Part shown: positions 1,336 to 32,296 of the stretch, piece by piece
How positions within the stretch are numbered: the first letter of the stretch is position 1
How the letters are laid out: every line of letters begins with the position of its first letter
NCBI GenBank assembly: GCA_040377305.1
Contig: JBEIPA010000009.1
Span: 64,001-128,000, forward strand
Source of the DNA: Flavobacteriales bacterium
GTDB taxonomy: Bacteria > Bacteroidota > Bacteroidia > Palsa-965
DNA length: 64,000 nt
Direction of reading: 5' to 3'
Notes under the pieces: model-generated
Databases searched by the model: none
What the model was told of the DNA's origin: nothing
The model's input: the letters and a program-made list of their open reading frames with translations, nothing else
Translations under genes and position numbers: made by a program

Positions 1336-4300
1336 CTATTCTCTAACAATTACCATTCGATCAGACTTAAGCATTTCTCCTTGAGTGCGTACGCAATATA
1401 TATACGTTCCAGAAGGAAGATAAGATGCATCGAAGGTGTAGACACCTTGACCACCTACAAACTGCCACGAGCCAACTAATCGACCAGTTAAGTCTACGAC
1501 GTCAAACGTTCCGCTTTGACCTTCGTTAAGTTCCATGTTGATTGACACAGAGCCATTCGAAGGATTTGGGTAAACGTGTGAGACAACCGGAGCAATGTAA
1601 GTAGTAGACGGCTGTTGAAGACGAACCGCGCTGCTGTCATGCACTTCAAGATGCAACATGTTTCTCGCATCGAATACTGCAGTGCCGCCGACCAGCGTGC
1701 CTTGATTGACAATTGCCATGAGTGTGGCTTCCTGCGTTGAATCAAGATTCATGCTGTCGATCGCCCATGTCTGCAAGTAAATATTCAATACAGCTTTACG
1801 ATTTACTTCAAACTCGCCGCTCGCCGTGATCGATGCTAAAAGTGTTATTGCGTTAGCAACACTTCCTGCACTGATTGAATCTTCAACATCTGCAAACTTG
1901 CCAATGTTTGTGCTCGACTCTGTGTTGTAGAAGTTCAAATAATAATTATTTTCTTTTGAACCACCTGTTCTCCATGATGGATGTTGTCTCAACATTCGGT
2001 AGGCATACACTTTGTCATGATACACATACTGCGCATTCAAAGTATCATACGTGCGTGGTGTCTTGCAGATACCGGACAGAGTATAATTGCGAATTCCCAG
2101 ATCATCTTGCGCCGGTGGCGCTAACATTTGCGAACACTGATCGCCATTGCCTGTGTATGTTGCTGCGTTCCCTAACAAACTACCCGGAAATACCGAGCTG
2201 ACGTCTGGGCTGGACGAAGTATAGTACCACTTAATGCCTGCGGCACTAACAGGGAGTATTCGTCCCGTAATGTCTTCGCTTGCTGTAGTCGTCCAAGTAT
2301 TTCCAGTCGAATACGGTGTCAGTGCAGTAGTCCAAGTTATCTGATCGTTGATGGAAACGCCGGCACCATATCCATTCAGGTAATTGAAATTCACGCCATA
2401 AAAACATGTTGTCATTGCATTGCATGCTAGTATGGATGGATTGCAAGCTCCCTTTAAGAAAATTCCACTGCCCATTTTCGTCAGAATGTTTTTGCAAACC
2501 GTATCATTCTTACAATTGGTCATGTGAATTCCGAACACTTCATCGTGATAAGCAGAAGTAGGAGTTGTTGCCCATGTCACTGTATTCTCCCGCACCATAG
2601 AGTTTGTGAGTTCTTCGAGTTTTATGCCGATGCACGGGTTTAACTGTGACATTGGTTGACCAGTCATAAACGAAATTGAATCGTTGTCGGTGATCTTCGC
2701 TCCATCAACTCTACTCACCCAAATTCCGTTACGCATCTTGCGCACCTTGTTATTCTGAATTTTTAGAGTAACAGGTGTGATTGCAGATTGAACAACATAG
2801 ATTCCTGTGTGACCAAAATTTGATAGCGCAAAGTTTCCGGTATTGTTGATCAAATTGTTGGTGATCGTAATCGAGGAACTTGTTGACTGCACGCACTGAA
2901 TGTTTGTTCCTGTGCACTCCGTCAATGTGTCCTGATTAATCAGGATCGTCCTGTTCTGACAATTCATGGTCGTAATTCCAGCGGTCATACATGAATCAAA
3001 GCGATTGTATTCACAATTCAGATTGATGTAGTTATAGGCATACGTACCATAACTGCATTTTGTGAATTTGTTTTTCGCTTTGTATCCACCTTGTCTTCCA
3101 ACCGTGCACGTTTTCGGCGTGAACTTACCTGCTACTAAGTAAACGGCAATACCATTCGGCGGAACATTTTTGGTCAAGATAGTCGTTGTAAAATATTTGA
3201 AATCGTTGTTCCAAACTTTCACATTTGATCCGGTCGAATAAACGCCATACTGTGTGCGCTCAAATAGGTTTCGCTTTGTACTGCTCGAACTATCTCCCAC
3301 AATGAATGAGTTACAGTTTTCGATATATACACCTGCCAGACCTTTACCACTTACTGGAGCGCGACAATTCGCACCCGCAAACGTAATTCCGGTGGTTGCC
3401 CCTTGTTGACCCGGTGCGTCACATGCAAAAATTGTTTTTGCGATGATGCCGGGATGCGTTCCACTATAGGTTTTGACAAGTACGCCAATATTGTTTTTGT
3501 TGAACTTACAAGTACCCGTACCACCGTCAATCAAGAAGTCGCCGCCATTGGTTGATACAAGTGCATTCTTGGCATCTTCAATCACGGTTCCGTTAGTAAC
3601 CGTAACCTTACTGGCGCTGTTCGTACCATCTACATAGATTCCATCCCACAAGTCAGAACATGCATGAAGCTTGGAATTAGTGCTAGCTGTATCAGTAAAC
3701 TCCAATTTTATTCCGGGTCTAACGATAATTTTTGCATTCGGCCCGAGCTTTATATGACATCCTTTGAATCGTGTATTCTTGTCGACGATAAAAACTCCGT
3801 TGATAGAAAACTCTTTCAAACCTGTTTCATAATATTGGTTAGAAGTGTTGTACCAGAACAACGAAGGATATGTTGTTGCGTCAACACGTGTAGTGCTATC
3901 ATTTACCAAATTCGGAAACGACAACTCCTGACCATCCTTGAACGGACAGCATGAAGGCACAATCAAATACGCGCTGCCTTGACAGCCACTTCCATCGACG
4001 ACTGAAACTGAAACGTTTCCGTTAATTCCAGTCGTATCAAAAGGAGAACCCCAACATGCATTGAGCGTTGATGTTGAACCGCCTGATGAACTGACCGCAT
4101 TGGTTGACCATGAGTATGTAGAATAGCCAGTTGCCGTTGTAAAATTAAAACAGCCCGCGCAGGTGGTCGCGCCCGATGGCGCAACAATATTTACTGTAAG
4201 CGGTGTAACCGTCACAGTCATAGTATCCTTTCGACTACAACCCGTTGTTGTGTTGGTGATCGTGTAAACGTACTGTGTGGTTGTTGTCGGACTGACGACA

Positions 4301-9600: not shown

Positions 9601-9728
9601 AAACCGACTCAAGCGAACAAGCGAAGCGTCTAATCATTCCGTCTGAAAGCCTAATGGACATTCAGCCGGAAAGGAAGGACGCATAAACGAGACCGCGCGA
9701 AGGCGCAGCGCGCAAGATTGCAAGTTGC
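9601..9728 (+). repeat. imperfect direct repeat, copy 1 (copy 2 at 10564-10711)
   Basis: Shared AAACCGACT..AATCATTCCG..TGAAAGCC..CCGGAAAG.AAGGACGC..ATAAACGAGAC.GCG.GAAGGCGCAG..CGCAAGATTGCAAGTTGC. Confidence 0.9.
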
Positions 9729-9744
9729 ATGATAGCACTAAATA

Positions 9745-9770
9745 AAAACTCCGGTACGATTGCCGGAGTT
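9745..9770 (-). terminator. intrinsic terminator downstream of the 72-aa ORF
   Basis: AACTCCGG-tacgattg-CCGGAGTT with T-run on the minus strand. Confidence 0.65.
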
Positions 9771-9822: not shown

Positions 9823-10041
9823 CTATTTCTTATCGCCACGACTACCGTGGAAGATACTTCCGAATATACTGTTATCATATTCGTACGCAGTTGTTGTTCC
9901 ATCGCTGTGATGTTTTGCGATTTCAACACAAGGATCTGGGAAAAATAGATCGTTGTTGGCTTTGTACACATAAGAGGTTTCCCCATCGTCCGAAACCTCG
10001 CGATAATGATTTTTGTCAATCCAATGCTTGTCGCTACTCAT
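9823..10041 (-). CDS. 72-aa hypothetical protein (MSSDKHWIDK...)
   Basis: GGAGG SD (within GGAGGTGA) 5 nt before ATG at 10041; terminator downstream. Confidence 0.65.
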   Translation of the reverse strand: MSSDKHWIDKNHYREVSDDGETSYVYKANNDLFFPDPCVEIAKHHSDGTTTAYEYDNSIFGSIFHGSRGDKK

Positions 10042-10125
10042 AATCACCTCCATATTTAAAGTTGACTCGATTTCCTCAGGACGAGCCCTGAACCCACTGC
10101 ATTTATCAGCCCTGCAGTTAAGCTT

Positions 10126-10288
10126 AAAAACAAAAAAAACCGGATGCCATCGATCAATGTGATCGTGGAATCCGGTTCTGTGCCAAGACGATGTTTAAAA
10201 AATCGTAATGAAAATTATGTCATATCACCATCGTCATTATTGGAACGTTTCCTCGAAGAACCGGTTCCATAAAATCCAATTTTTACTG
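10126..10288 (-). ncRNA. putative leader/attenuator RNA (RNA2) ending in a terminator upstream of the 72-aa ORF
   Basis: TTG-N20-TAAATTTC promoter-like (10324-10294); hairpin AGAACCGGAT..ATCCGGTTTTTTTT at 10126-10178. Confidence 0.45.
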
Positions 10289-10351
10289 CATATGAAATTT
10301 AGTACAACCGCCTTTATTATCCAAGTCTTTTTCAATAAAATCTCTACGGAT

Positions 10352-10467
10352 AAAAAAGCGGCATCTCCTTTCGGAAATGCCGTCTAAGTTTCTTTCTATA
10401 TGACATATAATGTCGGCGAAATCGGTTCTTCGAGGAAACATTTCGCGTAGAAGAAACTTAAGAGTCT
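10352..10467 (-). ncRNA. putative ~115-nt small antisense RNA (RNA1)
   Basis: TTGACA-N17-TATCCT (10502-10474); branched stem 10386-10459; GAAA-tetraloop terminator CGGCATTTCCGAAAGGAGATGCCGCTTTTTT. Confidence 0.5.
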
Positions 10468-10563
10468 TTGAGCAGGATATACCACTTAACGCAGCTTGTC
10501 AAGGGATAAACGGAAGTATCCTGTTGAGAAAATCATTGATCATCACAACCGCAATAACTAACA

Positions 10564-10770
10564 AAACCGACTTTTTGGTTAAAATAAAGGACTAAACCCA
10601 AGCGCGCCCAATCATTCCGGATGAAAGCCAAAAGGCATCAACCGGAAAGAAAGGACGCGGAAGCGAAATAAACGAGACTGCGTGAAGGCGCAGCGCAAGA
10701 TTGCAAGTTGCCGGTAAACTTTCGTAAACCGGCAACTTGCAATCTTGCTGGGGACACCCCAGACCCGCTA
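10564..10770. other. repeat copy 2 plus 21-bp inverted repeat; oriT-like region
   Basis: GCAAGATTGCAAGTTGCCGGT-N12-ACCGGCAACTTGCAATCTTGC followed by TGGGGACACCCCA; ATCTTGC resembles the MOBP nic core. Confidence 0.45.
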
Positions 10771-10835: not shown

Positions 10836-12572
10836 TTAAACGATTGACTTAATCGATGCCTGTCCAAACCAATTTCCCAATTTAGCCAGTGCACCTGCAG
10901 AAAGTTCTTGAGTAAAAAGAATTGCTAAGCGCTGTTTCGGCCGAGAACATGCAACATAAAACAAATTTCTGTTCTCTTCGAAATTTGCCTGTTGATCCGC
11001 GGCAATTGCGGTTCCTGCACGTTCCAACATTTTGTTGAAGTTATATTTGCTCCACCCCCGGCCTACAACTACGAGAACATTCTCGAATTCCGCTCCTTTT
11101 ACACCATGCTTTGTCGAGAATGGACTATAGTCATTAACGTATTTAGAAAGTGCAATAATTTCACTGTAGGATACGCTTCTGAATTTCTCGTTGTGTTCAA
11201 CCTTTTTCTTGAGTTCTTCTCCGGCATCATCAGTTGCCTTTGCAATTGCATGTTCGTTAATTTCGATCTTATCTGATAAGCGAGGACGCATACATTCTTT
11301 CAGGTGATCAAGCACTTCACCAATTGAAGCGTTGGAGCGAAGCACATCAAGTTTCTTCATATCCTCTGCCCATTTCAATTTATCATCATGTGAATTAACA
11401 TGAACAGTGCGCTGATCCATCACGCTAAACATTTGACCGAATCGCTTATTTGCATACGCCTGAGATACTGGCTCGAGCGTATCCAAAAAGAAAGCTATGT
11501 ACGGATCTTCCTTCTTGATAAACTGATCGGTGTTTGAAAAAAGATCCGCAATGCCTTTATATCCTTGCTCACTAGCCAACCCCTTGTGTGTTAGCATGAG
11601 GATTTTCGACTTGCTGGAAGTGAAGTCCCATCCTTCGCTTGCCAAGCGAGCTTTCAATTCTTCTAGATAACGATGTGATTCTGCTGCCGGTAAATCACCC
11701 GCCCAATGCGCACCAGTCAATCTTGATCCCGTCCAACCATTGGTGTGGTACACCGTAACTTCCCCCAAGTTTTCCTCGTCACTAACGTTCTGCGGAAGTT
11801 CGGGACGCATCCTATTAAGACTATCTACGATTTTCTTAGCCGATCGGAAATTGGCTTTTTTCCCAATCATCTTCAGGTTAGCATGTTCGATTTTGCCACA
11901 GCCGTTTCCGTATATTTTTTGCCAATGATCTCCAAAGAACCCCAAAAGAGGGCCTTCGTTCGTACCTAGAAAGTGCGTCTTAATTGCTTCTACGACATTT
12001 GCATCAGTATCCTGATATTCGTCAATAAAAATGACTGGAAATTTATCCGTGACGATGAAACGAAACTTTTTTTCTTTGAGAAATTCTACGAGAATCCGTA
12101 AAATGTCATTGTGACTTAACCAAATTTCCGACTCCGTTATTTTGGGGTAGCCGAGATCATAGGATATTTTGCGTGAACCAACTTCCACAACTTCAGCCTC
12201 TGTCAATCGCTCCTGCCAACTTCCAATAGAAGGAAGGATCTTTCGTAGTGCTGATTGATAATCTTTAATGATCGCCCAACTGAACGCATGAATTGTTGAA
12301 GAGAAAATAGCCGGATGACTATCAGTTCGGGAAGCAATTTCGTTACTCGCAACGTTGGTATAGGTTATACACGCGATCTGTTGTTTATTACGAAGCATCG
12401 CTTTCCCGTGCTCTTTAATGAGAAAACGTAGAGCGTGAACCAAGCTATATGTCTTACCGGCTCCAGCGCCCGCCTCTAGGACAAAACTCTGTCTGTGGTG
12501 AATGCACGCAAAAACACTTTCTAATGCTTCCTTTGCGGCAATCTCTGCTGGACTTATTTTTTTCTCTATCAT
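10836..12572 (-). CDS. gajB: Gabija GajB, UvrD-like helicase
   Basis: EAGAGAGKT, ITYTN, IDEYQD, FGDHWQKIY, KHGVKGAEF, YVACSR; 4-bp overlap with the OLD nuclease gene. Confidence 0.85.
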   Translation of the reverse strand: MIEKKISPAEIAAKEALESVFACIHHRQSFVLEAGAGAGKTYSLVHALRFLIKEHGKAMLRNKQQIACITYTNVASNEIASRTDSHPAIFSSTIHAFSWAIIKDYQSALRKILPSIGSWQERLTEAEVVEVGSRKISYDLGYPKITESEIWLSHNDILRILVEFLKEKKFRFIVTDKFPVIFIDEYQDTDANVVEAIKTHFLGTNEGPLLGFFGDHWQKIYGNGCGKIEHANLKMIGKKANFRSAKKIVDSLNRMRPELPQNVSDEENLGEVTVYHTNGWTGSRLTGAHWAGDLPAAESHRYLEELKARLASEGWDFTSSKSKILMLTHKGLASEQGYKGIADLFSNTDQFIKKEDPYIAFFLDTLEPVSQAYANKRFGQMFSVMDQRTVHVNSHDDKLKWAEDMKKLDVLRSNASIGEVLDHLKECMRPRLSDKIEINEHAIAKATDDAGEELKKKVEHNEKFRSVSYSEIIALSKYVNDYSPFSTKHGVKGAEFENVLVVVGRGWSKYNFNKMLERAGTAIAADQQANFEENRNLFYVACSRPKQRLAILFTQELSAGALAKLGNWFGQASIKSIV

Positions 12573-14632
12573 GACTTCGCCTTTTTAACTGTTGTCTTCT
12601 TTGGCGGCGGAGCAGAAGCTATAGGTGCAGCAGGAAGGGCTGCAGCTACAGGATTTTCTGCCAACCACAACAAACCATCAGCTATATATCGCGGGGTTGT
12701 CCAAGTTGTATTAGTAATTGCCCATTGGAAAGCAAACGTTGTTTTATCAATGTTCTGTGCCTTATCGTATGCATCCTTTTCCTTTTCCAAATCAGTAGTT
12801 CCGGTGAGTGGAATTAAAGATTGATTTGCCAAGATAAACGCATCTTCAAAACTGCGTCCACATGCGGTCGAACTATTCTCTGGAATCTGATATGCAAGAC
12901 GTCGATAGTGTGAGGTTTTATCGCCAGCACTTTTTCCTTTAAGAACAGTGGGAGAAATACTAGTGTCGGCAAACCATTTTTTGATCGTGGTGTTACTTGT
13001 GTGTGTACCAACGCTCACTTCACACTTTGCGCCTCCAGCACCATTTACAGAATCAATATCCGTGATGGTTAACGTTTTAAGCTGAAGAAAATCCAAAAGT
13101 CTAAAAAATATGTGCGCATACGCACCACCAACTTCTATGATAGAAACATATTGACTGGACAATTTGTGTCCGGAAGTGATTCCTACATCTGTCTTTGAAA
13201 TCATTGTTGGTAAGAGTAACCGCTCTGTAGCTCCTTCTATCAGAATCGCCTTGTCTGCAAAAAACAGATCACATTTGGTCAGGGTGATGTACTTATGTAA
13301 AAACTCCTTTTCGGCAGCCCACGCTGCGTCTGTAATTCCATTTCTTAAGTCCTTGATCTCCGTTTGTGCAACACCACCTGACCTGGAACTTAGAAAATAA
13401 CGAATAGACTCAAAACTTGATTCATTCGCAATGTGAGTGGAATGTGTCGTTATGACGAACTGTACTGGCCATTTCTTACCCGCGTTAAATTCCTTTTCAA
13501 ACTCACGAGCAATCTCATGAATTTTGCGAATAAAGACCTCTTGCATTTGCGGGTGCAGATGAGCTTCCGGCTCTTCAATGAACACTAGATGAATGCTTGG
13601 TGCAGTCGGCAAAGCCTTATAGGCCTTGAAGAACTCTAGTATCTGAAAGAGTATGTAGATGAGGTTCCGAGAACCCAACCCATTGTATGTTTCGGGTAAG
13701 CTGATTCCTTCTGCTGTTGCGTATCGGATTTTTGTATTGTCGCCTAGCAATCGTTCGACGTCCAACGAAGTTTCAGTTTGAATGTTGGGATCGCCAAGTC
13801 CCGGATAACCAAAAATTGAGAGAGCGGGAAGAAGTTTGTCAGCTTGCCGTGAGAAATCACTGTCTAACTTTTCTTGAATACCCTGCACTGCTGTTCTTAA
13901 CGCCTCAACTGTTGCCTTATCTGTTGCATCAGCTTCTTCTGAAGATGCCGCTCCAAGCAAACGCTGTAATATTTTCCCCAGTAGGTCTTTTTCCTTTTGT
14001 GTTGAATCGTCCAGCCCTCGCTGTGCATGAATAAAACCGGTCATCAATACCGACCGCAGATCGGATAACTCAAGACTTTTCTCATTCGTGAGGTCTGCCG
14101 GATCAATCGCTTTTACCGTTGTGACGTACCTTGATGAAATGCGATCCCTGATCTCTCGAAAAAATAGTTTCTTTTGCTTCACACTATCCTTTTCTTCCGC
14201 GCACTTCAGATCTTTGAACAACTCATCAATTCCGCCATCCTGCAAGCGATACGAAATTAAAGCGACCGCATCATGAGAACCCGAATCGAGATTAATGACA
14301 AAAGCTCCAAGCGGACCAAGTGATGCGCTGGTTGTGTCATAATTGAAGGTGATTCGAACTTCAATTATGGGAAGAACTTCCCGTATATCTGGTTCCGGCG
14401 CTTCAGCCACCCTCAATTGATACGCCTTCCAAAAGTCTTCGTGAGCAGATATTGAAAAATCCTCAAGAGTAAATCGAGCGGAAGTATCCGATAAGAATCG
14501 TTTCAATAATTCTGTGAAGCACGTCTTCCCCGAATTGTTTCTCCCAACAATGACTGTCGTCTCATCCTCCAAAGAGAGATGTACATCCCGGAGTATTCTG
14601 AAATTCTTAATTTCTACCTTTTGAATTTTCAT
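12569..14632 (-). CDS. gajA: Gabija GajA, OLD-family ABC-ATPase/TOPRIM nuclease
   Basis: GRNNSGKT, IEEPEAHLHPQ, TTHS, FFADKAILIEGATE, ITDID. Confidence 0.88.
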   Translation of the reverse strand: MKIQKVEIKNFRILRDVHLSLEDETTVIVGRNNSGKTCFTELLKRFLSDTSARFTLEDFSISAHEDFWKAYQLRVAEAPEPDIREVLPIIEVRITFNYDTTSASLGPLGAFVINLDSGSHDAVALISYRLQDGGIDELFKDLKCAEEKDSVKQKKLFFREIRDRISSRYVTTVKAIDPADLTNEKSLELSDLRSVLMTGFIHAQRGLDDSTQKEKDLLGKILQRLLGAASSEEADATDKATVEALRTAVQGIQEKLDSDFSRQADKLLPALSIFGYPGLGDPNIQTETSLDVERLLGDNTKIRYATAEGISLPETYNGLGSRNLIYILFQILEFFKAYKALPTAPSIHLVFIEEPEAHLHPQMQEVFIRKIHEIAREFEKEFNAGKKWPVQFVITTHSTHIANESSFESIRYFLSSRSGGVAQTEIKDLRNGITDAAWAAEKEFLHKYITLTKCDLFFADKAILIEGATERLLLPTMISKTDVGITSGHKLSSQYVSIIEVGGAYAHIFFRLLDFLQLKTLTITDIDSVNGAGGAKCEVSVGTHTSNTTIKKWFADTSISPTVLKGKSAGDKTSHYRRLAYQIPENSSTACGRSFEDAFILANQSLIPLTGTTDLEKEKDAYDKAQNIDKTTFAFQWAITNTTWTTPRYIADGLLWLAENPVAAALPAAPIASAPPPKKTTVKKAKS

Positions 14633-14719
14633 GATTCAAGATTACGGGGTTCATTATTACTGGTACCTGCAGATTTCCAAAGTGTAGACGAAATGCTGTA
14701 AAACACAAGAAGGCATTAT

Positions 14720-15307
14720 CTATCCACTCCCTAACAGATTAATCAATTCTTCCCTTTTCTTATCCAGTAATGTATCAATACGCTGCCCAATTGCAAATGA
14801 CCAGGTTTCTACAGAAGCATTGTTCTTATCTACAAACTCCATAGTCATTCGCAGGACACGGCTTACCTCTTCTGTTGCCCGTTGTGGGTTAAGTTCGGGG
14901 AGATCAACTGAAATTTCAATCTGATTGGAATATGGGACAATTACACCACGATCAGAAGAATAATATGAGAATCCTTCTTCAGGAACGTGACTAAACAGCT
15001 CCCGATCGCCGGTAAATGGAATGCTGATTTCGTGAATAAAATGGTTGGGGCTCACACCTCCAACAAGCATCTGGGTATGGGTCAAGGGGACTTCTTGAAA
15101 ATCATGATCGACAAACTGCGGCTTTCCGAGCACTACGCGAGTCAGGACTACGGCATTTCTGATACGTTGCTTTGTACGTTCGAAAGCTTTATCCTCTTGA
15201 ACGTCCTTTAACTTCAGACTGTTGATCAGAGAATTTATCTGCGATTCTCGCTCCTTTTTTAAATTTGAAAAGTGCGGAAGAGCATGTGGCGAAGTAAAAT
15301 TACTCAT
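14720..15307 (-). CDS. hypothetical 195-aa protein
   Basis: Clean ORF 12 nt after the upstream gene; IPFTGDRELF motif; helical C-terminus. Confidence 0.75.
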   Translation of the reverse strand: MSNFTSPHALPHFSNLKKERESQINSLINSLKLKDVQEDKAFERTKQRIRNAVVLTRVVLGKPQFVDHDFQEVPLTHTQMLVGGVSPNHFIHEISIPFTGDRELFSHVPEEGFSYYSSDRGVIVPYSNQIEISVDLPELNPQRATEEVSRVLRMTMEFVDKNNASVETWSFAIGQRIDTLLDKKREELINLLGSG

Positions 15308-15319
15308 GCGTCGATATTA

Positions 15320-15541
15320 TTAAAGTGGAGTTGACGGAGGTTCAACAATTACTTCTACAGGAAAGCCCTCCCACTTGCCGGCATCGAGATGACTCTGCAC
15401 CGCCGCGACATTCTTCTCTGCTGCAACACCGACCTCGATGTAATCACCTGATCCACGCGTTCGCGTTGATATACTAGTGACGAACTCGTTTGAAATAATG
15501 AGAGCCTCTAGTGCCTTCTTCGATTCCTTAATGTTTTTCAT
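15320..15541 (-). CDS. small protein resembling a standalone Nal1-type protease N-terminal domain
   Basis: Start MKNIKES 5 nt after the protease stop; V.SI...G..YIEVGV...GKWEGFPVEV pattern. Confidence 0.6.
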   Translation of the reverse strand: MKNIKESKKALEALIISNEFVTSISTRTRGSGDYIEVGVAAEKNVAAVQSHLDAGKWEGFPVEVIVEPPSTPL

Positions 15542-15546
15542 ATTGC

Positions 15547-16485
15547 TTACTGTAAAAGTTTCCACGTTTGAAGTTGGTCAGCGACTAGAACACCTGGGTT
15601 CGCGCTAGTTCCCGTCTCACCACCGGCAAAGAGTAGGCCGACGAAATCGCCATTATCTCCGAAGATAAATGATCCTGAATCACCTCCTTGCGAGAACTGA
15701 TTGCCACCATTTATATCTGTAATCAGCAGCTGATCCACGAATAAGGCAAGCTGTCCGTTATAATTCACTCGGAAGGAGCGGTCATCTGCCTGCACAATTC
15801 CTCGTGTTCCTCCAGTAGTTGCACCAAATTTTGTGACAATTTCCCCTTGACGTGGATGATGATAATTGACGTATCCACCTATAGCAACCTGCTCGTCTGA
15901 ATCAAGTTTTGCAACCGCGAGGTCGAGCACATTCGCATGTCCATGATATCGGATCGGCACAAAATTCTGCAGGTTGCCAATATGTCTACCATCATTCCCA
16001 ATCTTGAATACATCATCCCCGATTGCAGCATCATTGCAATTTGCGAGGACGTGATTATTACTAACAATGTGAGAAACCTTATTCCGGTTTCTGTCTATTG
16101 TGAAGCCGCCTAGAGTACCCCAGGTTGGTAGTGCCTGATGTGCGACTCGATCTCCTACCTGAAGAGCAGCGAACTGAGGAACGTCAATTACAGCGTTGCG
16201 CACAGAAATCTGCATTGGATTAAGACCAAACTTGCGCGCAATGTCATTTTTCACGCAACTACAAGAATGACCGTTGCATATTTGCGCATCGAAGACGAGC
16301 TGAAGCATAGAGCCACGGATCGTGCATACACTTAATAATAAGTCGCCATAGTTGGCGCCGCTGAAGTTGCGTGTTTTGCCGTAGAATGATTCAGATATGA
16401 ATCCAATGCTTTCGTTGGCCAAAGATGAATATGAAGGTTGAAGTGCGCTTCTGAAATAGTCGCGTGCGTTGTAGAGTTGTTTCAT
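15547..16485 (-). CDS. trypsin-like (S1, Nal1-like) serine protease, no signal peptide
   Basis: GTLGG, SNNHVL (His), DLAVA (Asp), K.GATTG.T.G, GGDSGS (Ser), GLLFAG. Confidence 0.88.
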   Translation of the reverse strand: MKQLYNARDYFRSALQPSYSSLANESIGFISESFYGKTRNFSGANYGDLLLSVCTIRGSMLQLVFDAQICNGHSCSCVKNDIARKFGLNPMQISVRNAVIDVPQFAALQVGDRVAHQALPTWGTLGGFTIDRNRNKVSHIVSNNHVLANCNDAAIGDDVFKIGNDGRHIGNLQNFVPIRYHGHANVLDLAVAKLDSDEQVAIGGYVNYHHPRQGEIVTKFGATTGGTRGIVQADDRSFRVNYNGQLALFVDQLLITDINGGNQFSQGGDSGSFIFGDNGDFVGLLFAGGETGTSANPGVLVADQLQTWKLLQ

Positions 16486-17036: not shown

Positions 17037-17846
17037 TTATCGCTCACGCCGATAGTGTTTTGTCTTGTGTCGTTTGGAGGTTGACGCTTCCCATGTTAAT
17101 GCATCGGGGAGCAATTTATTGAAGCGGTACTTTCGCTGATCATGAAGTACACCATAAATCTTCCCGCCACGTTCATACGTTTGCATTCCTTGCTTGCCTA
17201 ACAATGAATAAAACTCTTCTGGAGAAGATGATTGCTGTCGGCATGCTTGTATCACGTTCCTCACTTGCGTGCGCTTGCTTACTTTTCCTGCTCGCCCCAT
17301 TAATTGGACATCCGAATCCGCAAGTGTCTGCGACCTCCAACCGTGACGTACTACCGATCTAGACAGTTCCGGGAACTTCTCAATTTGATAGTGTTGAAAG
17401 TTCTTCTTCAGATCGGTCAGTTCCTGTCGCGACATCCGCATACTCTTTCCGGTACGGTATTCAATCGCAGAAGAACAGACATGGACATGAACATGGTAGC
17501 GGTCGAAGTGCGGCACTGCAACGTAACACCCTTTTGGATTCCGCATCTTGATATATTGTCTTATCAGCAACGCAAGTTTTTCCTGAGTGAGATGCTTCGT
17601 GTCGTCTCTATGAAAGGAAATAATCTCGTGATTTAGGTAAACAGAATTGGAGCGTTTACGAAGCCGGTGCTTCTCATTTTCCTTGAAGGATTTTACCCAA
17701 TCTTCAATGGCTGTGCCCCGAACATTATGCTTGATCACAAAACTTTTTCCGTGAGAGTCAAACAACCGTTCATCGTTATCAATCATGTAACGGAGTAGGT
17801 ATTCAAACTTAGGTCGTTTGTGAGTCAGGATTTTTACGAGCGGCAT
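17037..17846 (-). CDS. relaxase (MOBP/VirD2-like)
   Basis: N-terminal LLRYM tyrosine, HEIISF, PHFDRYHVHVH HUH motif. Confidence 0.85.
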   Translation of the reverse strand: MPLVKILTHKRPKFEYLLRYMIDNDERLFDSHGKSFVIKHNVRGTAIEDWVKSFKENEKHRLRKRSNSVYLNHEIISFHRDDTKHLTQEKLALLIRQYIKMRNPKGCYVAVPHFDRYHVHVHVCSSAIEYRTGKSMRMSRQELTDLKKNFQHYQIEKFPELSRSVVRHGWRSQTLADSDVQLMGRAGKVSKRTQVRNVIQACRQQSSSPEEFYSLLGKQGMQTYERGGKIYGVLHDQRKYRFNKLLPDALTWEASTSKRHKTKHYRRER

Positions 17847-18396
17847 TGTTTATTATCGTTAGTAATCGTTCTCTCAGTGCAGCGTCGGTTCGTGCGGCTT
17901 CACTCACCGCCACTTCGAGCATAGATGGAAAATCAAAAAGGTTGCGGATCTCCGTTTCCATGCGCGTAATGCGCTCTTCAATTACTGAGTACTTTTCTTC
18001 AATCGTGAAAAGAGACACCCTGCTTCTTATTTCAGTAATAACCCGAATGTCGTTCAGACATGATTCCAATAATGCGGCGAGTTTTCCAACGAGGACATTA
18101 TTTGGAATTAGGTATTTGCGTTCGATGTACGCGATCGTGGCCAATCGGAGGAATGCAGTAACGCTCATCTTGTGTCGTTTCGCTGCAGTCAAAACTTTGC
18201 CATAGTCACCATTGTGTTTTGATAGCTGAACCATAAACTCAGGTTTAACCTTGCGAAGCTGACTTTTGTATTCCCGCATATACACCTTGCGGTATTGGCG
18301 GCGCACTCCTTGTATTTCTTCTGGTGTTCCATTATTAAGAACGCCCGACGCTTCAAGGAACTGCCACAATGCATGGTGTTTCCCCTTCTTACTCAC
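17809..18396 (-). CDS. MobC-like relaxosome accessory protein
   Basis: Directly upstream of and overlapping the relaxase; AAKRHKMSVTAFLR RHH-like segment. Confidence 0.55.
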   Translation of the reverse strand: MSKKGKHHALWQFLEASGVLNNGTPEEIQGVRRQYRKVYMREYKSQLRKVKPEFMVQLSKHNGDYGKVLTAAKRHKMSVTAFLRLATIAYIERKYLIPNNVLVGKLAALLESCLNDIRVITEIRSRVSLFTIEEKYSVIEERITRMETEIRNLFDFPSMLEVAVSEAARTDAALRERLLTIINNAARKNPDSQTT

Positions 18397-19835
18397 GAAC
18401 CGTAGTTATTAGTGCCCAGAGGTAGCATAGAAATTGATTGTGCAGCATCACCGCGCATAATTGGGGGCTGTATAGCCATATACGCGCGATAGCGAAACGA
18501 TTTGTACGCAGGTCGCACATGGGCTAGGATCGGCGGATGTGAGCCGCAAATAAGCAATGCGCGATTAGGCTTGAGCATTCGAATTGAATCGTTGGTAAGC
18601 AGTGGAACAATCTCGCGCTTGCCATCTTCAGTCTTGTGTTCAGTCTTACCGAGAATGTCCGACAGTTCCTTCGTCGCTTCTAATCCGCCACCACCGAAAT
18701 ACACTTTTGAAGAACAGTTCGTGCGAATCGTTTCTGCATCTGCCTTGCCGTATGCATTCACAATTTGATTGAAGTCTTGAACTATCGCCATGAATCCGGC
18801 GCGGAATTTTCTGACGTTCGCGAATGCCGCAGGAAGTACCGGTACTTTCGCCATTGACCCGAATTCGTCGATGAGCATGAAAATATTCTGCTCATCATCT
18901 TCCGGAAAACGCGAAAGTAAATAACCTGTGAGTTGCTCAAAGAAAATCGCGTTGAGTACGCTGAAGTATGCCATGTCGCTTATTGATGACTGCAAGTAAA
19001 GAACGGTCGGTCGTTTTCTAAATTCAGAAAAATCAATCGTGTCAGTTGACGTAACACGTGCGACTGTATCATTCGCGAACAGCGTCAATGCAGACTTTGC
19101 CGAGGCGATAATTGAGGTAAGCAATTTATCATCGTATGTGATGAACGATTTATATTCGTTATACAATACTGGATCTGCGTAACGAACAAATAGAGCGTCA
19201 ATTGGATTGCTCGAACCTTCGTCAGACTTTTCGCCGAGCTGATTGAGCAATTGTCGAACATTATACAGATTCTGAAACTCCTTGCTTTGTGTCTTTAAGA
19301 TGGCAAAAAGTATTGCTAGCAATGTCGTTGCTTGGGTCTCCCAGAATGGGTCGGAGGTCTTGCCACCTGATAGTGAAGTACGCACGAGCATCGCTGCAAG
19401 TTTTTGTATCTCGTTCTGACTTTTGGCACGACTCAATGGATTAAATCCGCACGAGATGTCGGCGTTTCCGAAGTGAAGTATTTTTACAACATATCCTTCC
19501 TGTTCCAAATACCCGGCACTCGCCTTGAACAATTCGCCACTGGGATCTGCGACAAAAAAAGAACCACGCATTGCGAACAAACTTGAGAGTGCAGTTACCT
19601 GGCTCTTTCCGGAACCACTTTGTCCTGTTACTAGGCAGTTGGTGAAGGAGTCCTTGACAGTTATTTGCTTGCGCCCTGTTAATGAAAATCCTTTGTTCCA
19701 TCTCGAAAGTAGTACGCCTTCAGAAGCGAACTTTGCGTGATATCCTTTTTTGTCAGACGATCCAAAAAGCATCGACAGTAACTCGAAGAGTATTTTGAAT
19801 ATGGTTTCAACTATAGAGGTAAGGATTTCAAGCAT
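18393..19835 (-). CDS. type IV coupling protein (VirD4/TraG family)
   Basis: N-terminal hydrophobic helix; GQSGSGKS, DPSGEL, DPFW, LIDEFG, IVQDFNQ..YG. Confidence 0.9.
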   Translation of the reverse strand: MLEILTSIVETIFKILFELLSMLFGSSDKKGYHAKFASEGVLLSRWNKGFSLTGRKQITVKDSFTNCLVTGQSGSGKSQVTALSSLFAMRGSFFVADPSGELFKASAGYLEQEGYVVKILHFGNADISCGFNPLSRAKSQNEIQKLAAMLVRTSLSGGKTSDPFWETQATTLLAILFAILKTQSKEFQNLYNVRQLLNQLGEKSDEGSSNPIDALFVRYADPVLYNEYKSFITYDDKLLTSIIASAKSALTLFANDTVARVTSTDTIDFSEFRKRPTVLYLQSSISDMAYFSVLNAIFFEQLTGYLLSRFPEDDEQNIFMLIDEFGSMAKVPVLPAAFANVRKFRAGFMAIVQDFNQIVNAYGKADAETIRTNCSSKVYFGGGGLEATKELSDILGKTEHKTEDGKREIVPLLTNDSIRMLKPNRALLICGSHPPILAHVRPAYKSFRYRAYMAIQPPIMRGDAAQSISMLPLGTNNYGS

Positions 19836-23214: not shown

Positions 23215-24627
23215 CTACCGTTCTATTGTGAGTTTCTTTTTTTGCTGTTTTTTGGATTGAATGATTTCTTCTTCTCCGTCTCCAAACACCGTGAAATCTT
23301 CGAGTGAGGAGGCTAAGGCAACTTGTTTTTCGTCGATGTAATTCCGGAGTACTTGTTCACCCGAATGACCTGATATTGGCCGGATATCTGCGCCCATACG
23401 AATTTTTAAAGCCGTCATCACCACTTTGCGTAACACCTTAAATGTTTTCAGTGGTTTGTCGGGATGAGCGACTTTCCAGAAATGAGAGAAGCCTCGGGAG
23501 AGAGCCGATTTGACAGTGGGAACTCGGTTGGATGTAATTTCTGGCGCTATTATGAATTCATTAGAATTGCGTTTCTCTTGTAGACCCTGTTCATAGAGAA
23601 ATCTGGAAATTTGATTGGTAACCGGTGAATGCAACTTTCGTTCTTTGCCTTCGGCTGTATGTAAAATGCGCGAGACCTTAAAATCAGTGAATTCAATGAG
23701 CAGCGGTTTACCATTTGGATCGCAGTGCACATCAGAAAAGCGCGCCATGATTAGTTCTTCAAGTCTGCGACCAGTTAGAGCAAAACGAAATGCTGTAATC
23801 AGGTAAGGGCGGAAGTGGTTACGAGTTCGTTCGTGTTTGCCAATTCCCTTTTGAAATCCGTTTTCATAGGTGATAACGGACAGAACTTTTTGGAACTCTT
23901 CTTTTGTAATTACTTCTGGTCTTGGTGTTATTGTTTTTCGGGGTACGCGTTCAAAGAATCGCTTCACATTCCCATACTCTTCGCTTTCAGCATAAGATGC
24001 GAACGTGGTGAGAGTACTAAACCAGCGATTGTAAACTGAGTCGCTGTATCCTTTCTCGATTAGATAATCATGAAACTTGCCTACTACGTTGTCGTTTATT
24101 TCGTTCAGCTTGAATTGTGTAGTATCAATTCTAGCTGCGTGAAGTGCAAGCACGAAATTTTTGAAACAACTTTTGACGTCACTGATGTGAGATTTCGAGC
24201 GAATCAATCTCAGGTGAGGTGCAACTCCTTCTCCTTTTAGTGTTGCTAGGTATTTGCCGAAAGTGTGAACGAGTAATTCGGGTTTAGCACCCGTATGTGG
24301 TACGGGTGCCTCAGCAATCGTAGTTTGTCTTTTGGGAAGTCTCTCTTCGATTTCTCCCGCATCAAGTTTTTGCCTTAGTGTTGCGACTTGCTTCACCGCT
24401 TCCGAGAAGTCAGTGCCTAGTGACCGTACAATTCGCTTCTTAGTCCCTGGGATGAATCCAACAAAACGGTACTGCAGTTTTTCAATGTGTGAACATTCAG
24501 AAAGGGGCTTTGATTGGCAAGTCTTCACCATCGTCTTACAATGACCACACCAGATTCGCATGCACGGTATGTGTGCATTTGCTTTTAGTTGTATGTATTT
24601 CTTTTTGCTCATGCGGCGATGCATCAT
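23215..24627 (-). CDS. tyrosine recombinase / integrase
   Basis: ALTGRRLEEL (R), DFKV (K), TFKVLRK, SGHS, RNY (Y); SAM-like middle region. Confidence 0.88.
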   Translation of the reverse strand: MMHRRMSKKKYIQLKANAHIPCMRIWCGHCKTMVKTCQSKPLSECSHIEKLQYRFVGFIPGTKKRIVRSLGTDFSEAVKQVATLRQKLDAGEIEERLPKRQTTIAEAPVPHTGAKPELLVHTFGKYLATLKGEGVAPHLRLIRSKSHISDVKSCFKNFVLALHAARIDTTQFKLNEINDNVVGKFHDYLIEKGYSDSVYNRWFSTLTTFASYAESEEYGNVKRFFERVPRKTITPRPEVITKEEFQKVLSVITYENGFQKGIGKHERTRNHFRPYLITAFRFALTGRRLEELIMARFSDVHCDPNGKPLLIEFTDFKVSRILHTAEGKERKLHSPVTNQISRFLYEQGLQEKRNSNEFIIAPEITSNRVPTVKSALSRGFSHFWKVAHPDKPLKTFKVLRKVVMTALKIRMGADIRPISGHSGEQVLRNYIDEKQVALASSLEDFTVFGDGEEEIIQSKKQQKKKLTIER

Positions 24628-32041: not shown

Positions 32042-32244
32042 ATTTTTGGTTTTTATCTCCTAACAAATATGGTAATTCAATTGGGTTTTTTCAACAAAAG
32101 GTCAGAATTTGAGACTGTAGATATTTTCATTTTACTTCGAGAAGAGGATACCAAAATAAGGAGTGCTCCGACAAAGTGCTTGGGCGCGCACCGATGGAAG
32201 CACTTTTCGAAAAAGGTGGGCAACTGTTCAGTATTTTTGCTCTC

Positions 32245-32296
32245 AGCGTCGGACTCATAATCCGTTGGTCCCAGGTTCAAATCCTGGTGGGCGCAC
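32245..32296 (+). pseudogene. 3' fragment of tRNA(CAT) (Ile2/Met), probable attR
   Basis: CGGA-CTCATAA-TCCG anticodon arm, CCAGG-TTCAAAT-CCTGG T arm, TGGGCGCA acceptor 3' strand; 5' acceptor strand and D arm absent. Confidence 0.85.

Follow-up and report, generated by a model that had tools for sequence, protein, structure and literature searches.

The locus and its genomic setting

The window, that is, the whole 64,000-nucleotide stretch of DNA that was analysed, corresponds to C46:64001-128000 of a Bacteroidota-type genome of 5.2 Mb in 60 contigs, and the locus described here sits in a mobile defence island. A Gabija pair lies at 10836-14632 (GajB, E 3e-255; GajA, E 2e-275), and the island also codes for a MobA/VirD2-like relaxase (17037-17846), a coupling protein (18393-19835) and an integrase-like protein (23215-24627). 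With two genes found upstream of it, one PDC-S54-like (E 2e-8) and one for a trypsin-like protease, the Gabija pair makes up a block at 10836-16485. The 3' part of a tRNA with the CAT anticodon region was seen at 32239-32295 (plus strand), possibly an integration scar; a full tRNA at C46:54923-54997 differs from it in sequence. Next to the Gabija genes, a pair of predicted small RNAs and a gene for a 72-aa protein probably form a cassette of about 1 kb flanked by two oriT-like repeats:

9626 to 9728, strand not applicable: oriT-like repeat, left copy, truncated, 79% alike to the right copy over 112 nt
10604 to 10748, strand not applicable: oriT-like repeat, right copy, complete, with a 21-bp perfect hairpin at 10695-10748

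We infer that the bounding repeat is oriT-like, because its motif co-occurs with a related relaxase (as a single blastn match in the relatives G015, G016 and G024, 4-10 kb downstream of the relaxase gene) and because it matches what we take to be the nick-site consensus, on which the label partly leans. The left copy ends after the first arm of the large hairpin; relaxase-mediated recombination might leave such a remnant.

An acidic protein of a small family

The gene of the cassette and its terminator are as follows:

9823 to 10051, minus strand: 72-aa gene (open reading frame 10041-9823, with a Shine-Dalgarno-like site at 10051-10045)
9740 to 9770, minus strand: intrinsic terminator T3, after the 72-aa gene (terminator scan; stem 9770-9747)

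A sequence-only reading of this DNA had placed a 72-aa open reading frame beyond the terminator of the second RNA; the frame is there, 85 nt beyond that terminator (T2, below), and it has homologues. A relative with 50% identity, from a Parasphingopyxis MAG (locus L019), seeded a profile, and the profile search recovered 26 proteins of 69-98 aa from more than one phylum. The named members are from Alphaproteobacteria, Thermoanaerobaculia (two adjacent locus tags) and Prosthecobacter, with Ca. Thiodiazotropha as a cluster member. Judging from these sequences the 72-aa gene is real, and its length is confirmed because the starts of most homologues align with the second Met. Loci L020 and L021 were discarded as spurious, being an RHS repeat and the reverse strand of another gene; weak contact with an RHS repeat was seen for 7 of the 26 family members. 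The domain also occurs at the N-terminus of five longer proteins (P0042-P0046). Three of these have a Cys-containing C-terminal domain, which in our view resembles CFI-box-CTERM, and one has a hydrophobic segment and an SH3 domain.

In the model (pLDDT 72.6) the 72-aa protein folds into a beta-meander of five strands and ends in a short C-terminal helix. In the family this helix (9826-9870, minus strand) is amphipathic, with paired aromatic and basic residues, presumably reminiscent of membrane-targeting tails such as that of MinD. The protein had no Pfam, PHROG, PADLOC or PDB assignment and no usable feature match in the Atlas, and a single-sequence protein search returned only the query itself. 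A fold search gave DUF3836 as the best match (Z 5.7, rmsd 3.1 over 65 residues) and Foldseek gave no match at E 0.001, so that no function could be drawn from structure. No member of the family turned up in 399 of 400 genomes of the phylum, the single weak match containing a stop, and tblastn of the protein against plasmids and phages gave no match. By sequence comparison, the protein belongs to a new small family.

Readable DNA contexts were at hand for L019 and for L028/L029, two loci that are identical in the compared stretch and were counted as one; the other 24 of the 26 members were without such a context. In L019 the homologue follows a replication-relaxation gene, and in L028/L029 it forms a prophage insert and lies divergently to a putative regulator gene. 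Neither the RNA pair nor a match to the RNA models was found upstream of the homologue in these two independent loci (2/2), where a type I antitoxin RNA would accompany its gene. Since both loci have other upstream regions, the gene is a mobile cargo with exchangeable control, and the RNA pair not an obligatory antitoxin. The protein itself lacks the mark of type I toxins, which are short, hydrophobic and membrane-inserting: it is acidic and hydrophilic (pI 5.3, GRAVY -1.03), with a beta-meander and only the short C-terminal helix. The suggestion of a type-I-like toxin-antitoxin pair therefore gained no support.

Two tandem units carry complementary segments

Upstream of the 72-aa gene, folding and the terminator scan delimited a first unit, RNA1:

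10352 to 10467, minus strand: predicted RNA1, of 116 nt, or of 96 nt with a start at about 10447 (Bacteroidota-type box at 10460-10453)
10416 to 10446, minus strand: hairpin B' of RNA1, carrying the 17-nt antisense segment 10439-10423 (-7.1 kcal/mol)
10398 to 10414, minus strand: small hairpin of RNA1 (10414-10402) and 10-mer A' (10407-10398), the complement of site A in RNA2
10352 to 10382, minus strand: intrinsic terminator T1 of RNA1 (terminator scan; stem 10382-10359, -16.6 kcal/mol, 6 T)

RNA1 folds as a three-way junction followed by the terminator, with a 13-bp closing helix (10460-10448 with 10398-10385). A spacer of 60 nt, holding weak promoter candidates, separates it from a second unit, RNA2:

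10126 to 10289, minus strand: predicted RNA2 leader, about 160 nt when terminated (folding)
10241 to 10269, minus strand: target hairpin B of RNA2, with the 17-nt target 10263-10247 and the loop 10257-10252 (YUNR; -8.1 kcal/mol)
10187 to 10235, minus strand: middle hairpin of RNA2, a stem of 10235-10229 with 10193-10187 whose large open loop holds site A (10225-10216)
10130 to 10179, minus strand: conditional intrinsic terminator T2 (-22.6 kcal/mol, then 8 T; not listed by the terminator scan)
10220 to 10270, minus strand: 16-codon open reading frame spanning the target hairpin; the target overlaps codons 3-8

By their T runs, T1 and T2 are predicted to function on the minus strand only.

The central claim of the sequence-only reading, that the two units share a perfect complementarity of 17 nt, was borne out: 10247-10263 is the exact reverse complement of 10423-10439, and the match extends to 23 nt at 91% (10244-10266 with 10420-10442). 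After dinucleotide shuffling of RNA1 and RNA2 the longest complement was at most 12 nt in all 3000 shuffles. The 10-mer pair that it had also reported, site A (10216-10225) with A' (10398-10407), was likewise found, with a duplex energy of -11.5 kcal/mol. This pair is weaker support than the 17-mer; at least 10 nt were reached in 12 of the 3000 shuffles, and the 10-mer is nearly palindromic and therefore also reads as a direct repeat. The 16-codon frame is present as described.

Perfect inverted repeats of at least 17 nt with 30-1000 nt between the arms number 159 in the genome; judged by eye, they are mostly repeat families. The 17-mer is different: genome-wide (5.2 Mb) we found the two copies described here and one unrelated site with two mismatches, and between 7000 and 33000 in the window it is the sole inverted repeat of at least 13 nt with a gap of 50-500 nt. 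An origin from a REP family was dropped, the 17-mer being a single-copy pair outside any repeat family. Elsewhere in the 5' part of RNA2, a stretch of 12 nt (10270-10281, minus strand) is identical to part of a genome-wide palindromic repeat family (10 matches including RNA2 itself, 7 of them of the same family by eye); this may be chance.

Each 17-mer caps its own hairpin, B in RNA2 and B' in RNA1. The basal stems of the two hairpins do not have the same sequence; complementarity is confined to the loop and the imperfect upper stem. Differing stems around a shared apex would be the pattern expected of antisense pairs that meet loop to loop. Because the apex is kept while the palindromic arms differ between the copies, a reading as antisense RNAs is favoured over one as DNA operators. 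The B' loop (10434-10429) is an open 6-nt loop, unpaired with a probability of about 0.9; its contact with the B loop (10257-10252) comprises 6 bp at -6.4 kcal/mol, and the full B/B' duplex about 20 bp at -33.8 kcal/mol. Both loops have a YUNR motif, a 4-letter motif and weak evidence alone, which is reported as a U-turn motif of antisense targets and as the scaffold on which several antisense systems make their first contact (PMC3834814). Since the order is the same on both RNAs, B before A and B' before A', both duplexes at once would need a pseudoknot-like geometry.

A predicted switch between antiterminator and terminator

The 5' strand of hairpin B can also pair with the 5' arm of T2. This antiterminator, proposed before in a shorter form, was supported by folding: 10268-10257 pairs with 10179-10167 over 12 bp, interrupted by one bulge, and the 5' arm of T2 (10179-10167) thus doubles as its 3' strand. 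None of 500 shuffles of the leader disturbed T2. A stretch of 8 nt complementary to the 5' arm occurs in the 130 nt upstream for only three of 216 terminator-like hairpins of the genome, and T2 is probably one of the three.

In foldings of the nascent leader from a start at 10289, the antiterminator had a probability of 0.99 from 10170 to 10143, and at 10140 the terminator took over in the ensemble (0.89). Once the 3' arm of the terminator appears, the two constrained folds lie within 0.6-3 kcal/mol of each other: antiterminator and terminator have -37.6 vs -38.2 kcal/mol at the decision point for a start at 10289, and -34.8 vs -37.8 kcal/mol for one at 10270. At equilibrium, without RNA1 and with the 3' arm out, T2 had a probability of 0.81-0.96 over 12 assumed start sites, and the full-length antiterminated fold dominated only for starts near 10289. 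Read-through without RNA1 must therefore be kinetic and may be small.

When the target was blocked, T2 had a probability of 0.98, and in the RNA1-RNA2 dimer that of the antiterminator was 0.001. The net energy of RNA1 binding to the nascent antiterminated leader was -5.4 kcal/mol for the 116-nt RNA1 and -13.4 kcal/mol for the 96-nt form. Binding of the long RNA1 to full RNA2 modestly beat shuffled sequences, 8 of 200 shuffles being as good. In a transcript that reads through T1, B and B' pair in cis (T2, 0.986; antiterminator, 0.001), and the whole stretch folds with a z of -7.8.

Promoters and host expression signals

Two candidate promoters were assigned:

10474 to 10502, minus strand: candidate promoter P1 of RNA1, sigma-70 type (10/12 matches, 17-nt spacer, predicted start at about 10467)
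10294 to 10323, minus strand: P2, a weak candidate for the promoter of RNA2, with a one-mismatch Bacteroidota -7 box (10301-10294) overlapping an 8/12 sigma-70 match (predicted start at about 10289)

From its position P1 would start RNA1 just ahead of the closing helix, and sites as good as P1 number 65 in the genome (0.006 per strand-kb). P2 is a weak candidate, and the weakest part of the attenuator model set out below. One-mismatch boxes of the Bacteroidota type precede both hairpins (10460-10453 and 10301-10294). No promoter match better than 8/12 was found between T2 and the start of the 72-aa gene. The expectation that each unit has its own minus-strand promoter and terminator thus held for the terminators T1 and T2 and for P1, and less well for RNA2, whose promoter is an 8/12 match or a one-mismatch box. 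We also noted that identical Bacteroidota-like boxes, at 10385-10392 (plus strand) and 10460-10453 (minus strand), face each other across RNA1. A predicted plus-strand transcript from 10385-10392 would run antisense to RNA1 and, having the 17-mer of the RNA2 target, might serve as a decoy.

Upstream of 2998 long open reading frames of the host, TAnnTTTG was enriched (660 sense vs 327 antisense), whereas TTGACA (154/136) and TATAAT (139/166) were not, and Shine-Dalgarno words were rare (25 of 2998). This promoter word and the scarcity of Shine-Dalgarno sites fit the habits of the phylum Bacteroidota (PMC7366714). P1 is of the sigma-70 type, rare here, and the 72-aa gene has a Shine-Dalgarno site, which suggests a donor outside Bacteroidota. 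As these are types that the host does not favour, the cassette may be foreign and poorly expressed in it.

Searches for related RNA pairs

We found no homologue of either RNA in 60 relatives, in 34 genomes of the order, searched by blastn and with two covariance models each built from a single sequence, or in 12 stretches downstream of related relaxases, these searches being blind to relatives with changed sequence and their outcome applying to the genomes searched. Besides the locus, the RNA1 model gave 16 matches, of which the nine inspected were ordinary terminators, and the RNA2 model one weak match. By blastn, plasmids and phages yielded only matches of 27-35 nt at E 0.5. The exact 17-mer occurred three times in viral contigs, always inside unrelated coding DNA; gapped patterns gave no match in viral contigs and four in metagenomes, all due to chance. 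Rfam gave nothing at the gathering score in the region and 14 chance-level matches at E up to 10. A hammerhead or tracrRNA-like RNA was set aside, as no catalytic core was seen by eye and no cas or reverse-transcriptase gene was found among the 32 window proteins scanned. Covariation of the 17-mers, which the sequence-only reading had hoped to follow in homologues, therefore did not turn up in the relatives, the genomes of the order, the relaxase stretches, the plasmids or the phages. Among the genomes searched, the tandem layout is a single locus.

A leader of another kind was seen in G030/G031 (L035 ~1501-1640, minus strand; L041 ~1450-1600, plus strand). There, a short Cys/Met-rich leader frame overlaps a hairpin and an intrinsic terminator upstream of a gene that resembles peroxiredoxin by eye; from its sequence it is likely a ribosome-mediated sulfur amino acid attenuator.

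Proposed mechanism and alternative explanations

We propose, tentatively and at close to an even chance of being right, that the locus is a trans-encoded, tandem variant of antisense-driven attenuation. The two RNAs would be transcribed separately, and the upstream RNA1 would act in trans on the nascent leader of RNA2. Without RNA1, hairpin B would open and its 5' strand would pair with the 5' arm of T2, forming the antiterminator some 30 nt before the 3' arm of T2 is made. Because it forms ahead of the 3' arm, a share of the polymerases would run through, a kinetic outcome. When RNA1 is present, its open loop would kiss the target loop through the 6 bp, and the duplex would zip to its full length, so that the antiterminator could not form and T2 would close. 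The 72-aa gene beyond T2 would then be read only when RNA1 is scarce. A transcript from P1 that leaks past T1 would carry both segments, pair in cis and also stop at T2, as a fail-safe. On entry into a cell free of RNA1, after transfer, or when RNA1 synthesis stops, the cassette might thus make the 72-aa protein in a burst, followed by silence. The attenuator proposed by the sequence-only reading is the one that fits best, and it gains in silico from the differing basal stems around a common apex, the 6-bp contact of YUNR loops, the balanced folds and the loss of the antiterminator on RNA1 binding; it is weakened by P2, by the lack of covariation among the sequences searched, by the terminator being favoured without RNA1 and by the different upstream regions of the two independent homologues of the gene.

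Four other explanations were weighed. The locus may be a relic of duplication, in which a hairpin was copied in inverted orientation during assembly of the cassette, the 5' part of RNA2 descends from T2 as a worn duplicate, and the complementarities are by-products in a silent or unregulated cargo. We consider this unlikely, though it would account for a single locus without conservation, in a genome rich in inverted repeats (the 159 above), for a leader that resembles terminator arms, as any duplicate would, and for a promoter and ribosome site of foreign type. A copied hairpin, however, should share its basal stem, whereas only the apical 17 nt match here and each stem is separately self-complementary. 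Nor would a relic be expected to keep together, within 750 nt, a second matched pair, three intact terminators, a well-placed 10/12 promoter and an intact gene.

Pairing could also act after transcription: RNA2 would always end at T2, as a small RNA or the message of a 16-codon peptide silenced or degraded by RNA1, much as trans-encoded type I antitoxins do, and the 72-aa gene would be a separate unit. The preference for T2 at equilibrium, the overlap of the target with codons 3-8 and the B/B' duplex, here taken as 20 bp and -33.8 kcal/mol, which could be a nuclease substrate, are all consistent with this. Nevertheless, we find it improbable, because it leaves the 12-bp antiterminator (0/500 shuffles) unexplained and would have the 72-aa gene transcribed from a region with no promoter match above 8/12, and because the 16-codon peptide is a predicted open reading frame product only.

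To a cis-only insulator we likewise give little credence. Transcripts from P1 or from further upstream that pass T1 would fold the 17-mers together and stop at T2, those from P2 would escape, and free RNA1 would be a by-product. The closed T2 of the read-through transcript (0.986, with the antiterminator at 0.001) and the z of -7.8 for the whole stretch speak for such a role; T1, however, is strong (-16.6 kcal/mol, 6 T), so that few transcripts would read through to be insulated, and the closed three-way fold of RNA1 with its exposed loop suits a free RNA.

Least probable of all, and by our estimate very improbable, is an element that works as DNA, its arms being recombinase sites of an invertible 159-bp segment or its near-palindromes operators or a dif-like site. 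In length and spacing the arms resemble those of invertible promoters; both motifs are near-palindromic, and 10199-10226 resembles a dif site. Against this, the two copies share their centre but not the palindromic arms, which a protein would read, an integrase-like gene is found no nearer than 13 kb away, and the modelled inversion keeps T2 closed (0.986) and would therefore switch nothing. Inversion would turn the weak P2, inside the arms, away, but T2 ends the P1 transcript in either of the modelled orientations. Invertible promoters are common in Bacteroidetes (PMC11602134). On closer inspection the dif-like 28-mer (10199-10226, plus strand), which overlaps site A, was one of 17 genome matches at that level, and the short palindrome of a presumed operator was not enriched (23 sites, vs 9-112 for permuted palindromes); both candidates were rejected.

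If antisense-driven attenuation is the right reading, the locus would point to entry-triggered expression of a new small-protein family. It is a doubtful step further to see in it a natural, portable two-gene RNA switch, in which a small RNA gene, standing free and in tandem before a riboswitch-like attenuator of its own, would control intrinsic termination in trans, without protein, for a previously undescribed family of small acidic proteins, the 1-kb unit between two relaxase nick sites giving a pulse in each newly entered cell that could, for example, protect the arriving element or restrain its Gabija system.

Comparison with known systems

In trans-encoded type I toxin-antitoxin pairs such as IstR-1/tisB, OhsC/shoB and OrzO/zorO, the antitoxin RNA forms about 17-21 perfect bp with the leader of a small-protein message. 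The partners there are divergent, control falls on translation and decay, and the peptides kept in check are short and hydrophobic; the layout here is tandem, and the 72-aa protein is acidic and soluble-looking.

In pIP501 (RNAIII/RNAII), pT181 (RNAI/II) and pCF10 (Anti-Q/Qs), a small RNA pairs with the nascent leader through U-turn loop-loop contacts and favours an intrinsic terminator over an antiterminator, and pIP501 needs two loop pairs (PMC3834814 and PMC3181467). The locus shares with pIP501 and pT181 complementary loops with a U-turn YUNR motif and, by folding, a mutually exclusive antiterminator and intrinsic terminator in the leader; with pIP501 it also shares a second complementary pair (A/A'). 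However, the RNAs of pIP501, pT181 and Anti-Q are countertranscripts from the opposite strand, complementary over their length, whereas RNA1 has a gene of its own, which lies 150 nt upstream on the same strand and is matched over 17-23 + 10 nt; both units end in minus-strand terminators and the inverted repeat is 153 nt apart. Moreover, the known targets are rep or a conjugation operon, and the target here is neither: downstream lies the gene of the 72-aa protein, without Pfam, PHROG, PADLOC or PDB match. Thus, in its working the locus would resemble pIP501, pT181 and Anti-Q attenuation, yet it falls outside the pIP501/pT181 class, because RNA1 is not cis-encoded and there is no rep target.

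Closer in layout are the CI RNA of phage P4, with seqA/seqC, and the c4 RNA of P1 (c4-icd-ant operon), for which PMC4825925 and PMC8546580 describe a regulator upstream on the same strand, acting in trans by premature termination ahead of a small gene on a mobile element. The locus resembles both in having a regulator RNA upstream of its target on the same strand, a small gene and a mobile element. P4 CI, however, is cut out of the primary transcript that also holds its target, and it has a target to either side, whereas RNA1 has its own strong terminator (T1), which argues against such processing from the target transcript, and the 17-mer has a single partner, downstream. The small gene here, unlike the P4 and P1 context, matches no PHROG family, and the Rfam C4 model gave no match at the gathering score nor among the 14 matches at E up to 10.

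Among Bacteroidota, RteR from CTnDOT, a conjugative transposon of Bacteroides, is a trans-encoded RNA of about 90 nt with its own promoter and proposed to cause premature termination (PMC3809561), and RNA1, too, is a trans-encoded RNA with its own candidate promoter on a mobile element of that phylum. RteR, whose sequence was compared through the Rfam scans only, acts on the tra operon inside the coding sequence, and its mechanism is no more than a suggestion; the target of RNA1 is the leader beside it, with an explicit terminator and antiterminator and 17 perfect bp. If the attenuation proposed here is true, Bacteroidota would gain a compact RNA switch, for which RteR is the precedent there.

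Natural small RNAs that set intrinsic termination are thus, in the papers considered here, either countertranscripts (pIP501, pT181 and Anti-Q) or, with P4 CI and P1 c4, same-strand RNAs processed from the target's own transcript (PMC3834814, PMC3181467, PMC4825925, PMC8546580; a further source for comparison is PMC6524683). The tandem layout is not reported in the open-access full-text literature searched, and a separately terminated, trans-encoded regulator of a terminator/antiterminator leader would, if true, extend the known mechanism of attenuation.
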